Assembly: GCA_027031765.1 (NCBI GenBank)
Contig: JALVPN010000076.1
Coordinates: forward strand, 1-5,471
Source: Promethearchaeota archaeon
GTDB taxonomy: Archaea; Asgardarchaeota; Thorarchaeia; Thorarchaeales; Thorarchaeaceae
Length of the DNA stretch: 5,471 nt
Direction: 5' to 3'
Part shown: one piece after another, positions 1,880 to 5,471 of the stretch
Layout of the letters: every line of letters begins with the position of its first letter
Position numbering within the stretch: position 1 is the first letter of the stretch
Notes under the pieces: generated by a model
What the model was told of the DNA's origin: nothing
Seen by the model: only the letters and a program-made list of their open reading frames with translations
The model's database searches: none
Program-made: the position numbers and the translations under genes

Positions 1880-2080
1880 ACACCAGCACTGGCGCGATGG
1901 GGTGCATCCACACAATCCTTATGAAAACGCACGACGACTACCATACTGTAGAGAGACGAAGGCTGCAATGATGTGGCCGGCTCCGGATGACACTTCCCCG
2001 ATCCTGTCCGACATGTCCATTGCACGCACAGACGGAACGACCAATGAGAGGACTGTAGACCAGTGACAGCACCAGAACAC

Positions 2081-2090
2081 AGGAGCGTGA
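2081..2090 (+). promoter_or_regulatory. Putative ribosome-binding site (AGGAGCGTGA) for the Zn-ribbon/helical-repeat gene
   Basis: Purine-rich SD-like sequence 5 nt upstream of ATG 2096. Confidence 0.5.
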
Positions 2091-2095
2091 CGCCC

Positions 2096-3310
2096 ATGAG
2101 TGATAAGACTGTGTGTCCAAAGTGCGGAAAAGCAGTGGCCAGAGGGTCGACTTTCTGTATCAACTGTGGGAGCAGGATACCGACAGACCAGATACCGCTG
2201 ACCGAAGACCATGCACCTGATACTGCCGAAGAGGCCGACGTGACGCTGCCAGATGTAGACGAGACACTCCCATTGGAGGGACACCCTGGGCTCCCAGAAG
2301 ATGTGCTGCCCGACCTCGAAGAGTGGCACGGGCTATCAGCTGACGCGTCCGAGACAGGAACCGGGACACCAGCGGTTGGTACAGGTGAAACGGCACCTCT
2401 GCCATCAGCGGAGGGACAGACGCACGGTGCCCCCGATGAGGACCTGAGCGCCCTCTCGTGGGACGAGGGTACCATCAGGGAAGTCCCCAGTGACATGGTG
2501 AGAGAGGGCGACCCGTTCGTCGAGGTCGAGCCACCAAGAGTATTGGAGGAGGACACTGTGGCCGTGGCCCCAACGGGCGACCTTGAGTGGGAGGAGAGTG
2601 CTGTCACTGCCGAGGCGCTAGGGGATACGGTCGCCGTGGAAGCTGCTATGAGCCACCTCTTCCCAGAAGAGAGCAGACCCTCGCCGGACTTTATTGAGCG
2701 GATTGTGGGACGGGCACGCAAGATAGAGATAAGGGACAGGACCGCCGTGACAAGGGCACCGGTGTGCCCGAGCTGCGGGGCGGACCTGACAGAGGACGGG
2801 TTCACGTACCCACCATATGTGTTCGAGGCAATGGGACGTGCAAGAGTGGAAGAGGGCGAGCGGCGACTGGAGAACGACGACTATGAGAGAGCAATCGAGG
2901 AGTTCGAGAAGGCGAGGCTCCTGTACGAGAAGGCAGGGGATGAGAGGCTCGTCCAGGAGGCGGCGAGGCTTGTTGACAGGGCCTACGAGGAGGTGGCCGC
3001 GTCATACTTCGAACAGGGAGAGAGACATCTGAGGGAGCACGAGTTCGAGTGGGCCATCGTCCAGTTCAAGAAGGCAAGAGAACACTACATGCTGACGTCG
3101 GACGCCAAGAAGCGTGCGAAGTGTGCTGAGAAGGTACGCGAGTGTTATGAGGAGTGGGGCAAGGTCTTGGAGGCAGAGGGTGACCAGCTCGCCAAGAGCG
3201 GCCGCACACGGGCAGCCCTTGAACGCTACCGCCAGGCCGCGGAGAAGTACAGGCTGGCAGAGGCCGACAAGCGGCGGAGAGGACTGGAGAAGAAGATCCG
3301 CAAGATATGA
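2096..3310 (+). CDS. Zinc-ribbon, acidic linker and TPR-like helical-repeat protein (hypothetical)
   Basis: 404 aa from ATG 2096 (ORF track starts at GTG 2063). N-terminal CPKCG-x9-CINCG zinc ribbon (2114-2167), D/E/P/T-rich disordered linker, second CPSCG knuckle (from 2765), and three TPR-like repeats with glycines at 2855, 3017 and 3179. Confidence 0.85.
   Translation: MSDKTVCPKCGKAVARGSTFCINCGSRIPTDQIPLTEDHAPDTAEEADVTLPDVDETLPLEGHPGLPEDVLPDLEEWHGLSADASETGTGTPAVGTGETAPLPSAEGQTHGAPDEDLSALSWDEGTIREVPSDMVREGDPFVEVEPPRVLEEDTVAVAPTGDLEWEESAVTAEALGDTVAVEAAMSHLFPEESRPSPDFIERIVGRARKIEIRDRTAVTRAPVCPSCGADLTEDGFTYPPYVFEAMGRARVEEGERRLENDDYERAIEEFEKARLLYEKAGDERLVQEAARLVDRAYEEVAASYFEQGERHLREHEFEWAIVQFKKAREHYMLTSDAKKRAKCAEKVRECYEEWGKVLEAEGDQLAKSGRTRAALERYRQAAEKYRLAEADKRRRGLEKKIRKI
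2855..3307 (+). repeat. Three tandem 54-codon (162-nt) protein repeats, TPR-like
   Basis: Conserved G1, A13, F/Y17, A20 and Y24 in all three units and YEE at positions 44-46 in the first two; unit starts at 2855, 3017 and 3179; the third unit is truncated by the stop codon. Confidence 0.75.
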
Positions 3311-3371
3311 CACGACATAACACTACGTGACGTGTCCTAACACGGTGTTGCGTGGTGTGGTCCGGTCTGGT

Positions 3372-3389
3372 ACAGCAACAGTGTGCTGT
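3372..3389. terminator. Possible stem-loop between convergent genes
   Basis: ACAGCA-acagtg-TGCTGT, a 6-bp stem in the 99-nt gap between convergent stops at 3310 and 3410. A second stem, GACACG (3309-3314) / CGTGTC (3331-3336), and the inverted repeat AACAC-G-GTGTT (3339-3349) are nearby. No oligo-T tract. Confidence 0.25.
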
Positions 3390-3409
3390 CCGAGAACCCC
3401 CAGCGTGGC

Positions 3410-5461
3410 CTAGATCCAGTCGCCAGTTTCGAGTTTGCGCGGGATGTACTCATCAGTGAGGAACTCAAAGGAGTGGCTGGCAAAGGCCTGGATCTCGGCC
3501 TTCTCCTTTAGCTTCAGCATCAGCCTGAGGTCCTCGACCCATGGCTTGTTCTTCTGGACGAATGGCTCCTTCAACATGTCCTTCACACGCTTGATGTCAG
3601 CAGGCTCCATCGGGATGCGGACAGCCTTCGGGATATTGTATGCGTCTAGGTCGCGGCTCAGCACGCCGAGGAGTTTCAGCTCTGGGGTGGCAATGAAGGG
3701 CGACTCGTAGCTCAGTCGTTTGCTGCCCCTCAGGAACACAGAGTAGATGTAGTGTCCGTACGGGTCAGAGTCCACCAGTGCGAAGGCCGGTATCTCAAGT
3801 TCCTTGACGAGCATCTTCAGGAACGCACGAGTGGCAATATCGCCAGACCCCTTGCCTGTGAGGACTATGCAGGGCTGACGGTTCCAGTACTTGGCCTCGG
3901 CAAGCCGCATGACCGCTGCGTCTTTCTCTGAGAGCAGGATGAACTCGGCATCGCTCTCGACAATCTCTACCTGGTCCAGGAACGGTGTGATGGCCCAGCC
4001 ACCAGTGCCCATCCGTGTGAGGTCTATCAGGTCACCGCCGTCACGGATGATCACCCGTCCCATTGCAGAGCCCCGGGCGGAAGCAACAATGTGGATGCTG
4101 TCACGTGTGGTACGCAGCATGGACGCGACGTCCTCAATGATCTTGTCGCTGTGCTTCTGCTCACGGAACAGGTTCACATCGCTGTAGAAGACCTCTCGTT
4201 TCGTGGCGTGCAGGTTCGACTTGAGCAGCTGGTAGACGATCTCCATTATCCGTGCCGTGCGCGTGGCGTCCACTACGGAACCCAGCGAGTGATAGGGCCG
4301 GGTGATCTTGCGCATGCCCAGGAGCAACAGGTCGCGCACCTCGTCCCAGACAATGTTGTCGCTCGAACGGCTGGGGATCTCAAATGCCGGGCGGCCGGTG
4401 GTCATGGCCTCGTTCAGTACTTCCATCGCTACCTCAACGAGGCGTTCCATGGTCTCTTGCCTCGTGAGGTCAACCACCTCTACTGTTTCCAGTTGCACTT
4501 CTCTGGCCGCACCGGCTGCCTTCTCGGCCTCTCGCCACTGACGCTTCATCTCCTTGGCGAGCCGGACTATGGCGTCCGGGACCGGCAGACCGGACTTCTT
4601 GCGTCGTATCTTTGCGATCTCTGTTTTTTGTAGCCTTCCAGGTGTCCTCCTTGGGGTGCTCACTGTTTCCTTCTCCGCCTCACTCTTCTTCTTCCTGCTC
4701 CTCTTGCGCCTTGCCGGAGCAGCAGTCGTTGTAGTCGTGGTCCTAGTTGTCCTGCCCCTATCCGTAGCGGTGGGGGGCCTTGTCTCGCGGGCCGCAGTCG
4801 TGCGCCTTGTCCGTTTGCGGGGCGCAGCCACTGGAGCGCCGGTCACACGTGCCACCTCCACCTCACGGATCAGGTCCCTAGCTGCGGTCACGAGAGTCGC
4901 GGCACGTGCCTCGCTGAGCCCTGAGACCTTCTGGGCCACAGTGGAGGGACGCGAGCGTGCAAGACGCGCCACCGAGTCATAGCCGGCATCCCTGAGGCGG
5001 ACTGCAAGTCTTGGACCGACCCCGGGGACGTCGGTAAGCTCAAGTGTCGGCCCTGCTGGTGGTGCCCCTCCAGCCGAGGGTGCAGCAGCCGGTTCCTCAG
5101 GCGCGGCCGGTGCTGCGGGGGTGGTCGGTGGGGGTGCAGTGGTACGGCCCGTCCGCGGGACAGCGAGCAGCTCCTTTGCAGCGGCGACAATCCGTTCCGC
5201 GCGCTTCTCGCTCAGCCCCTCGACCTTCTTGGCGAGAGTCGCCGGCCGTGCCTTTGCGACCTTTCGCACTGTCTTGTAGCCCGCCGCTACCAGTCGTTCG
5301 GCCATCTTTTTCCCGACGCCCGGGATATCGCTCACGGTGGGGGCACTGGCAGCACGCGTACTCTTCTTCGACCTCTTGCGTGGTGTGGGCCCTGCGTCAC
5401 CGACCACACTGTCTAGAGTGACCTGTACGGGTTCGGCGCTCTTCTCCTTACGCCGTGGCAT
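3410..5461 (-). CDS. top6A: DNA topoisomerase VI subunit A (Spo11 family) with a long N-terminal extension containing two HhH domains
   Basis: The C-terminal ~350 aa carry Top6A/Spo11 motifs: FEIPSRSSDNIVWDE, winged-helix TKREVFY with catalytic Tyr (codon 4184-4186), Toprim EKD (Glu 3926-3928), TGKGSGDIATRAFL, DSDPYG (DxD from 3772) and KAEIQA. One uninterrupted frame from ATG 5461 (or GTG 5467); an in-frame TGA at 5468-5470 shows the ORF is complete at its 5' end. Confidence 0.95.
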   Translation of the reverse strand: MPRRKEKSAEPVQVTLDSVVGDAGPTPRKRSKKSTRAASAPTVSDIPGVGKKMAERLVAAGYKTVRKVAKARPATLAKKVEGLSEKRAERIVAAAKELLAVPRTGRTTAPPPTTPAAPAAPEEPAAAPSAGGAPPAGPTLELTDVPGVGPRLAVRLRDAGYDSVARLARSRPSTVAQKVSGLSEARAATLVTAARDLIREVEVARVTGAPVAAPRKRTRRTTAARETRPPTATDRGRTTRTTTTTTAAPARRKRSRKKKSEAEKETVSTPRRTPGRLQKTEIAKIRRKKSGLPVPDAIVRLAKEMKRQWREAEKAAGAAREVQLETVEVVDLTRQETMERLVEVAMEVLNEAMTTGRPAFEIPSRSSDNIVWDEVRDLLLLGMRKITRPYHSLGSVVDATRTARIMEIVYQLLKSNLHATKREVFYSDVNLFREQKHSDKIIEDVASMLRTTRDSIHIVASARGSAMGRVIIRDGGDLIDLTRMGTGGWAITPFLDQVEIVESDAEFILLSEKDAAVMRLAEAKYWNRQPCIVLTGKGSGDIATRAFLKMLVKELEIPAFALVDSDPYGHYIYSVFLRGSKRLSYESPFIATPELKLLGVLSRDLDAYNIPKAVRIPMEPADIKRVKDMLKEPFVQKNKPWVEDLRLMLKLKEKAEIQAFASHSFEFLTDEYIPRKLETGDWI
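4865..5338 (-). repeat. Tandem duplicated helix-hairpin-helix modules (RadA/Rad51-NTD-like) inside Top6A
   Basis: Module 1 (about 5162-5338) VSDIPGVGKKMAERLVAAGYKTVRKVAKARPATLAKKVEGLSEKRAERIVAAAKELL and module 2 (about 4865-5041) LTDVPGVGPRLAVRLRDAGYDSVARLARSRPSTVAQKVSGLSEARAATLVTAARDLI align without gaps at a 99-aa offset; 29 of 57 residues identical by manual count. Confidence 0.9.
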
Positions 5462-5471
5462 TGTCACTCAC

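Follow-up and report, generated by a model that had tools for sequence, protein, structure and literature searches.

The question raised by contig JALVPN010000076.1 of the Promethearchaeota archaeon assembly GCA_027031765.1 (Thorarchaeaceae) is why the DNA-cleaving A subunit of a topoisomerase VI (Topo VI) should begin with two helix-hairpin-helix (HhH) modules, and whether such a protein is real. The window analyzed here is this whole contig (C76, 5471 bases) out of a genome of 2.95 Mb that is held in 229 contigs and is 95% complete; the gene in question, referred to below as HhH-Top6A, lies at 3410-5461 on the minus strand as a single frame of 683 amino acids (aa), starting with the ATG at 5461. 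Spo11 descends from Topo VI, whose A subunit (Top6A) works together with a B subunit (Top6B). The enzyme is nearly ubiquitous in Archaea (Villain et al. 2022, PMC9348778). The answer developed in the following sections is that the fusion belongs to one Thorarchaeota family, in the principal Top6A lineage of Asgard archaea, and that the added N-terminal arm probably serves to hold the enzyme on nucleic acid.

Architecture of the fused protein

The frame of HhH-Top6A closes with a stop codon at 3410-3412, and an alternative GTG start at 5467 would extend it to 3410-5467 (minus strand, 685 aa). The preliminary description of this DNA had reported a single 683-aa frame with an in-frame stop directly upstream, and both coordinates are correct, the stop being a TGA at 5468-5470 (minus strand) next to the end of the contig at 5471. 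From its N-terminus, the protein consists of a basic tail, a first (HhH)2 module, a Pro/Ala linker, a second module, a Thr/Arg-rich linker, and a complete Top6A. NCBIfam Top6A models align only to residues ~330-683, thereby leaving an additional part of ~295-330 residues, in agreement with the ~330 aa first estimated; the best other NCBIfam matches for this N-terminal part are RadA and the haloarchaeal-type L32e.

All segments of the protein are encoded on the minus strand. The N-terminal basic tail (residues 1-40; 5342-5461) has a net charge of +6 and is predicted to be disordered, with a predicted local distance difference test score (pLDDT) of 33-39, and is followed by (HhH)2 module 1 (residues 41-101; 5159-5341; net charge +8), which is recognized by its PGVG and GLS hairpins, a Pfam HHH_5 match, conserved alignment columns, and an AlphaFold2 pLDDT of 85-91. 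An uncharged linker rich in Pro, Ala, and Thr (residues 102-140; 5042-5158; net charge 0), likewise predicted to be disordered and earlier placed almost identically at 5042-5161, leads to module 2 (residues 141-202; 4856-5041; net charge +2), for which a Pfam HHH_5 match, a separate module model, and a Foldseek match to RadA are available. Next comes a basic linker rich in Thr, Arg, and Lys (residues 203-295; 4577-4855), again predicted to be disordered and carrying a net charge of +23, so that the segments of the arm add up to about +39. The full-length AlphaFold2 model, computed with 52 close homologs, reaches a mean pLDDT of only 55.8 with a poorly modeled core, and its use is confined to the confidences of modules and linkers: pLDDT is 85-93 at residues 41-100 and 141-205, below 40 at residues 1-39, 103-136, and 210-287, and moderate for a helix at residues 296-317. 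The modules are accordingly predicted with confidence and the tracts between them are not.

The arm joins the protein just ahead of the helices leading into the catalytic core. In this segment (4472-4576), which includes the model helix 296-317, conservation is high, with S290 and W309 invariant in the alignment of 52 homologs. TopoVIA of Asgard archaea and eukaryotes is described as having an extra N-terminal helix (Brinkmeier et al. 2022, PMC9665070), of which helix 296-317 is probably the equivalent. In the consensus of the 52 sequences there is no conserved Met between arm and core from which a short isoform could be started internally.

The Top6A core covers residues 331-683 (3413-4471), as delimited by Pfam, NCBIfam, and alignments to solved structures. 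Within it, the 5Y-CAP domain (TP6A_N; residues 400-458; 4088-4264) is matched by Pfam at 6.3e-20, and the Toprim domain (TOP6A-Spo11_Toprim, PF21180; residues 507-677; 3431-3943) at 2.5e-53 over positions 1-170 of 170. The catalytic residues had been called intact, and inspection of their codons bears this out for R422 (4196-4198), the catalytic Y426 (4184-4186), E512 (3926-3928), D564 (3770-3772), and D566 (3764-3766). The R-x-x-x-Y motif formed by R422 and Y426 falls on the catalytic region in alignments to 2zbk_A and 1d3y_A; it is invariant in the 52 homologs, as are the metal-binding E512, D564, and D566 (E plus DxD). The protein thus combines features that define a type IIB Topo VI-A/Spo11 enzyme, namely a 5Y-CAP domain with the catalytic Tyr, a Toprim domain, and a partner B subunit of the GHKL-transducer kind; ATP-dependent strand passage, seen as relaxation and decatenation, would be the activity expected of such an enzyme.

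The same 5Y-CAP plus Toprim core, with R-x3-Y, E, and DxD, is found in the Top6A structures of S. shibatae (2zbk_A, 389 aa), M. mazei (2q2e_A, 369 aa), and M. jannaschii (1d3y_A), and the present core aligns end to end with 2zbk_A; canonical archaeal Top6A is also encoded beside Top6B. However, the solved chains lack both the extra helix and the ~295 N-terminal residues that comprise the pair of (HhH)2 modules with the disordered, basic linkers around them.

Distribution and reality of the fusion

A comparative sample of 301 Asgard genomes was searched with the N-terminal 335 residues as the query. The fusion occurs as long Top6A frames of 642-863 aa in 75 of the 76 genomes of the organism's own family, one of which (G236) is listed as a single contig, and the short frames that were encountered are cut by contig ends. 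For these reasons the fusion is regarded as a family-wide trait and neither a chimera nor a start-calling artefact. Moreover, the best 120 matching proteins all measure 644-855 aa and possess HHH_5, TP6A_N, and Toprim; where a source is named, it is labelled Thorarchaeota in almost every case, and fused proteins are publicly annotated as 'helix-hairpin-helix domain-containing protein'. No Top6A fusion was present in the sole genome of the sister family (G108, family f2, 96% complete) or in the 28 other Asgard families sampled. The f2 ortholog is a protein of 420 aa with a Lys-rich tail and without HhH.

The preliminary description had proposed that two HhH modules are genuinely fused to Top6A within one gene, and had also pointed to an assembly chimera or a separately encoded HhH part in relatives as findings that would undo it. 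The Pfam domains and the family survey uphold the fusion, and none of the evaluable relatives carries the HhH part as a separate gene. In one relative (G158; L068, G158:C264:1-2400) the frame stops at residue 444 in the 5Y-CAP region and continues into unrelated sequence; a split gene was considered and rejected for this case, because the break falls within the core instead of at the border of arm and core and the metagenome-assembled genome is fragmented, and the copy is either truncated or misassembled. Logan contigs of run X1, a hydrothermal vent metagenome, cover 3300-4565 and 4742-5464 with zero differences but do not bridge 4566-4741, a gap that falls in the Thr/Arg-rich linker; the window stretch was not found in run X3, and no RNA run was listed as containing it. 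That the sole run holding the sequence leaves this gap is the one point in favor of an assembly chimera or a gene-calling artefact, which nevertheless is exceedingly improbable in view of the same continuous frame being recovered from many assemblies across the family, the single-contig genome among them.

The preliminary description knew of no account of this architecture for Top6A, and no published description of it was found: HhH domains on Top6A are not described in the full-text literature covered, including Garnier et al. 2021, Villain et al. 2022, Brinkmeier et al. 2022, and Allen and Maxwell 2024, a coverage to which most subscription journals do not belong. The fusion is apparently a lineage-wide and unpublished elaboration of the main Asgard Topo VI. 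It adds to an already unusually elaborated set of Asgard enzymes, with an extra helix on A, an enlarged B, and up to three paralogous operons. As a domain fusion with a fairly predictable role that is seen only in uncultured organisms, it is noteworthy, not startling.

Orthology, paralogs, and the partner subunit

In a tree of 51 Asgard Top6A sequences with support values from the Shimodaira-Hasegawa-like approximate likelihood ratio test (SH-aLRT), the fused forms make up one clade (SH-aLRT 100) that is sister to the HhH-less f2 ortholog (99). Together, they are nested in a clade (99) that contains the main copy of almost every Asgard family, and the end branch is short (0.1). This position in the tree indicates that the fused protein represents the main Top6A of Asgard archaea, passed on by vertical descent, and that it acquired its arm on the stem lineage of this Thorarchaeota family. 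Among solved structures, the core is nearest to S. shibatae Top6A (2zbk_A, 4.6e-61). The main Top6A proteins of other Asgard archaea thus share one orthologous clade with the fused form, and a short basic Lys-rich N-terminal tail occurs in the Top6A of both the sister-family genome G108 and the Loki-type genome G213; they differ in that the A subunit is without HhH in G108 and the 28 further families, several lineages enlarging B instead.

The genome contains two Top6A and two Top6B genes. One pair constitutes a canonical Topo VI operon (G000:C110, ~18300-20900; L001, L004), in which a Top6B of 518 aa with HATPase_c is followed by a Top6A of 360 aa; the latter shares only 28% identity with the HhH-Top6A core and has its nearest structures in the Protein Data Bank in the Top6A of M. 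mazei and M. jannaschii (8e-64, M. mazei being the best). This euryarchaeal-like type was also seen in families f2, f7, f12, f21, and f27. A third, very divergent Top6B-Top6A pair exists in relatives of the same family (L016-L019, in G236, G124, G046, and G069), with a Toprim match of 1e-20 to 1e-24 and a weak TP6A_N match in its Top6A; this pair was not detected in the present genome. Similar copies were observed in family f3, and such a copy is the sole one seen in family f13 (G012).

In two relatives with long contigs, a Top6B of 705 or 644 aa ends at, or within ~14 bases of, the start of HhH-Top6A. The matching long Top6B of the present genome runs off the end of another contig, C59, where it is cut in its C-terminal part (L065/P0123). 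Since Top6B directly precedes HhH-Top6A in the relatives, C59 most likely continues into the right end of the window, a join deduced from synteny, and the TGA at 5468-5470 may be the stop codon of the long top6B, given how closely that stop adjoins the top6A start in those genomes. Compared with M. mazei Top6B, the long Top6B is extended by a basic tail at its N-terminus and by another tail behind the transducer, and ~105 residues are inserted between its N box and its G1 box; its ATP-binding motifs are still recognizable, and Pfam HATPase_c gives no score at E <= 0.001 (L065/P0123; L005:5883-7997). The copy in this genome contains a short run of N.

A GyrA domain was not detected in the genome, which is 95% complete; Topo VI therefore appears to be its sole type II topoisomerase family. 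In agreement with this, gyrase is reported to be seemingly absent from Thorarchaeota (Villain et al. 2022, PMC9348778).

Fold and relatives of the HhH modules

Pfam recovers HHH_5 in two stretches of the arm (8.9e-27). When modeled separately, module 2 reaches a pLDDT of 91.1, and in Foldseek its closest match is the N-terminal domain of M. maripaludis RadA (TMq 0.82, root-mean-square deviation 0.9 A, 38% identity), followed by Rad51, the AR domains of NusA, and the DNA-bound (HhH)2 domains of topoisomerase V (Topo V; 43% identity). Foldseek E-values are weak for a small domain of 65 residues (best 3.7e-3), and the TM-score, the root-mean-square deviation, and the probability were used in their place. 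By sequence, the modules match Topo V at 3.5e-8 and Rad51/RadA at 1e-6, and the H. marismortui L32e matches module 2 plus linker at 1.6e-4. Over 52 modules, the P-G-V-G and G-L-S hairpins with their glycines are conserved along with the core of the fold. Each module is thereby an (HhH)2 domain of the type at the N-terminus of RadA and Rad51, with two HhH motifs, five helices, and Gly-rich hairpins.

Between modules 1 and 2, identity is 50%. Measured against module 2 of this protein, second modules across the family are 52-62% identical and first modules 38-48%, from which it follows at the level of sequence that each is distinctly conserved in its position. The number of modules per protein is two in 115 of the best 120 proteins and three to five in the other 5, a variation that fits a tether of tunable dose.

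A hidden Markov model of the Top6A modules retrieves the same module type from five other proteins of the genome, namely eL32, eS25, an MFS-like membrane protein, RadA, and a RadA paralog. In eL32 (G000:C215:5359-6261; L062) an N-terminal module is joined to a charged linker, and in eS25 (G000:C216:16635-17549; L063) a C-terminal module stands behind a basic linker. The eS25 module is the nearest relative of the Top6A modules in this genome (54% identity), ahead of those of eL32 (45%) and the RadA N-terminal domain (40%). An origin of the modules from the neighboring RadA was therefore rejected as the leading interpretation, the eS25 and eL32 modules being more similar. Many further HhH-bearing frames are present in genomes of the organism's family, and the module looks like a portable unit of this lineage as opposed to a copy of the nearby RadA. 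The appendages of eL32 and eS25 and the N-terminal domain of RadA/Rad51 share fold and module type with the Top6A modules; the host proteins differ, as HhH-Top6A has neither a recombinase nor a ribosomal domain. The MFS-like protein (G000:C27:3237-4982; L064) is a multi-pass membrane protein with a C-terminal HHH_5 module and no other Pfam family, an odd site for a DNA-binding domain.

Proposed function of the arm

Domains of the (HhH)2 type bind the DNA backbone without sequence preference, and characterized Topo VI, as known from work on the M. mazei enzyme, binds DNA weakly and acts distributively. Against this background, the arm is proposed, with a probability of roughly 0.6, to be a non-specific nucleic-acid tether that keeps Topo VI on DNA. 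HhH-Top6A would be the DNA-cleaving A subunit of the organism's main Topo VI and would pair with the long, upstream-encoded Top6B into an A2B2 enzyme. The preliminary description had envisaged four flexible arms on such a tetramer; the arms as such are retained, and their number is corrected to two, each with two modules. The functions first suggested for them, namely capture of the transported segment, sensing of crossovers, and targeting of recombination intermediates, are speculative. Solved structures of Topo VI show the N-terminus of subunit A touching the transducer of subunit B. Each arm is expected to bind duplex DNA without sequence preference by means of its HhH hairpins and basic tracts, and the disordered linker of 93 residues would be long enough to reach any part of the enzyme. 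The arms might thereby raise the local affinity for DNA, retain a weakly binding and distributive enzyme on its substrate, and help it to hold a second duplex. The observations that underlie this proposal are direct as far as architecture, conservation, orthology, partner gene, intact catalytic residues, and module fold are concerned, while DNA binding is suggested by family membership and net positive charge, and effects on affinity, processivity, and the capture of crossings are proposed.

The best functional analogy for a DNA tether is Methanopyrus kandleri Topo V, which also unites a topoisomerase with (HhH)2 modules. Its array comprises 12 (HhH)2 domains and supports processivity and salt tolerance. 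However, Topo V belongs to type IC and bears its array as one long, contiguous block at the C-terminus, whereas the type IIB enzyme described here has two N-terminal modules (rarely three to five) separated by disordered linkers; hence, the arm is no member of the Topo V-like (HhH)n processivity arrays, although it may work in a similar way. If the tether is real, HhH-Top6A represents a natural version of Topo VI with built-in putative DNA-binding arms, and the arm-less orthologs of the sister family offer a ready comparison for studying the limits on DNA capture and processivity among type IIB enzymes.

Several points weigh against the tether. The (HhH)2 fold also docks proteins, as in NusA AR2 and in the N-terminal lobe of RAD51 on the histone H4 tail, both of which are among the matches; the most similar modules within the genome sit on eS25, eL32, and a membrane protein, so that the module is not confined to enzymes acting on DNA and could have RNA or another ligand as its target; and a second, canonical Topo VI operon is present, with the title of main enzyme being conferred on the HhH form by phylogeny, not by expression. 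Additionally, the full-length model, at a mean pLDDT of 55.8, is too poor to place the arms relative to the DNA gate. These points lend themselves to other readings of the arm. For instance, the modules could dock the enzyme onto proteins or chromatin and recruit Topo VI to histone-bearing chromatin, the replisome, or another partner, a reading that draws on the complexes of NusA AR domains with RNA polymerase and SuhB, on the RAD51 lobe, and on the frequent placement of recruitment domains at the end of long flexible linkers such as these. It is nevertheless rather unlikely, given that the arm is strongly basic throughout, which most simply signifies nucleic-acid binding, and that DNA-bound Topo V is among the closest sequence matches with solved structures.

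Somewhat less probable again is the notion that module and charged linker serve Thorarchaeota as a generic, portable tag for nucleic acid or condensates, which would bring varied proteins together in one compartment rich in nucleic acid without a specific part in strand passage. The occurrence of the same module type with low-complexity linkers on eL32, eS25, and the MFS-like membrane protein, along with the many other HhH-bearing frames in genomes of the family, would be explained by such a tag, yet the position-specific conservation of modules 1 and 2 (52-62% versus 38-48% identity to module 2) and the retention of the fusion in all but one of the 76 family genomes fit a selected, enzyme-specific role. 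A targeting function in recombination, by which RadA-like modules would direct a Spo11 homologue to recombination intermediates or RadA filaments for the formation or resolution of breaks and not for general topology, is very improbable: the modules do share the fold of the RadA/Rad51 N-terminal domain, and radA is located ~3 kb away in the window and also in one relative, but common descent makes such proximity expected inside a single family, the modules resemble a ribosomal-protein module more than that of RadA (54% versus 40% identity), and the protein, an ortholog of the single main Top6A that other Asgard families have, has kept its ATPase partner. The DNA tether consequently remains the preferred reading of the arm.

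Elaboration of Topo VI in other Asgard lineages

Enlargement of Topo VI is not restricted to the A subunit. Open frames of Top6B extend to 2258-4305 aa in families f5, f14, f16, f22, f25, and f26 and to ~1000-1180 aa in families f9, f24, and f27; one Top6B of 2311 aa, the sole one scanned, has matches to RAD51D_N (2e-26) and HHH_5 past the transducer. Because of the Top6A arm described here and these HhH matches on an enlarged Top6B, HhH additions to Topo VI are judged from sequence to recur in Asgard archaea on different subunits. It can be suggested, tentatively and at somewhat less than even odds, that Asgard Topo VI has been armed with RadA-type HhH more than once, at the N-terminus of A in Thorarchaeota and behind the transducer of B elsewhere, with modules from a portable pool that also supplies ribosomal proteins. 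If this were true, it would suggest that the lineage as a whole needs its Topo VI tethered to the substrate, whereby a distributive enzyme would be turned into a processive or crossing-capturing one.

The main Top6A of families f29, f22, f16, f5, f14, and f25 (L020, L026, L028, L031, L035, L036, and L039) measures 469-506 aa and has a different N-terminal extension of 115-150 residues, which by eye only resembles a small beta-rich domain. In the sampled genomes G006 (f7) and G053 (f21), a main-type Top6A was not found, and only the euryarchaeal-like (type 2) Top6A was seen, in two or three copies each, some of which have an N-terminal extension of ~85 residues resembling a winged helix.

Neighboring genes in the window

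The remainder of the window encodes four further proteins. The N-terminus of RadA (HHH_5 plus Rad51), preceded by an acidic leader, is located at 1-399 on the minus strand, and a Roadblock/LC7 protein at 733-1071 on the same strand. On the plus strand, a membrane-like protein of 212 aa without a family assignment (1241-1879) is followed by a protein of 415 aa that has a zinc ribbon at its N-terminus, an acidic central part, and a tail of helical repeats (2063-3310). This set of genes is also found near the Topo VI operon in relatives, those of RadA, the Roadblock/LC7 protein, and the zinc-ribbon protein being shared with the two relatives that have long contigs.

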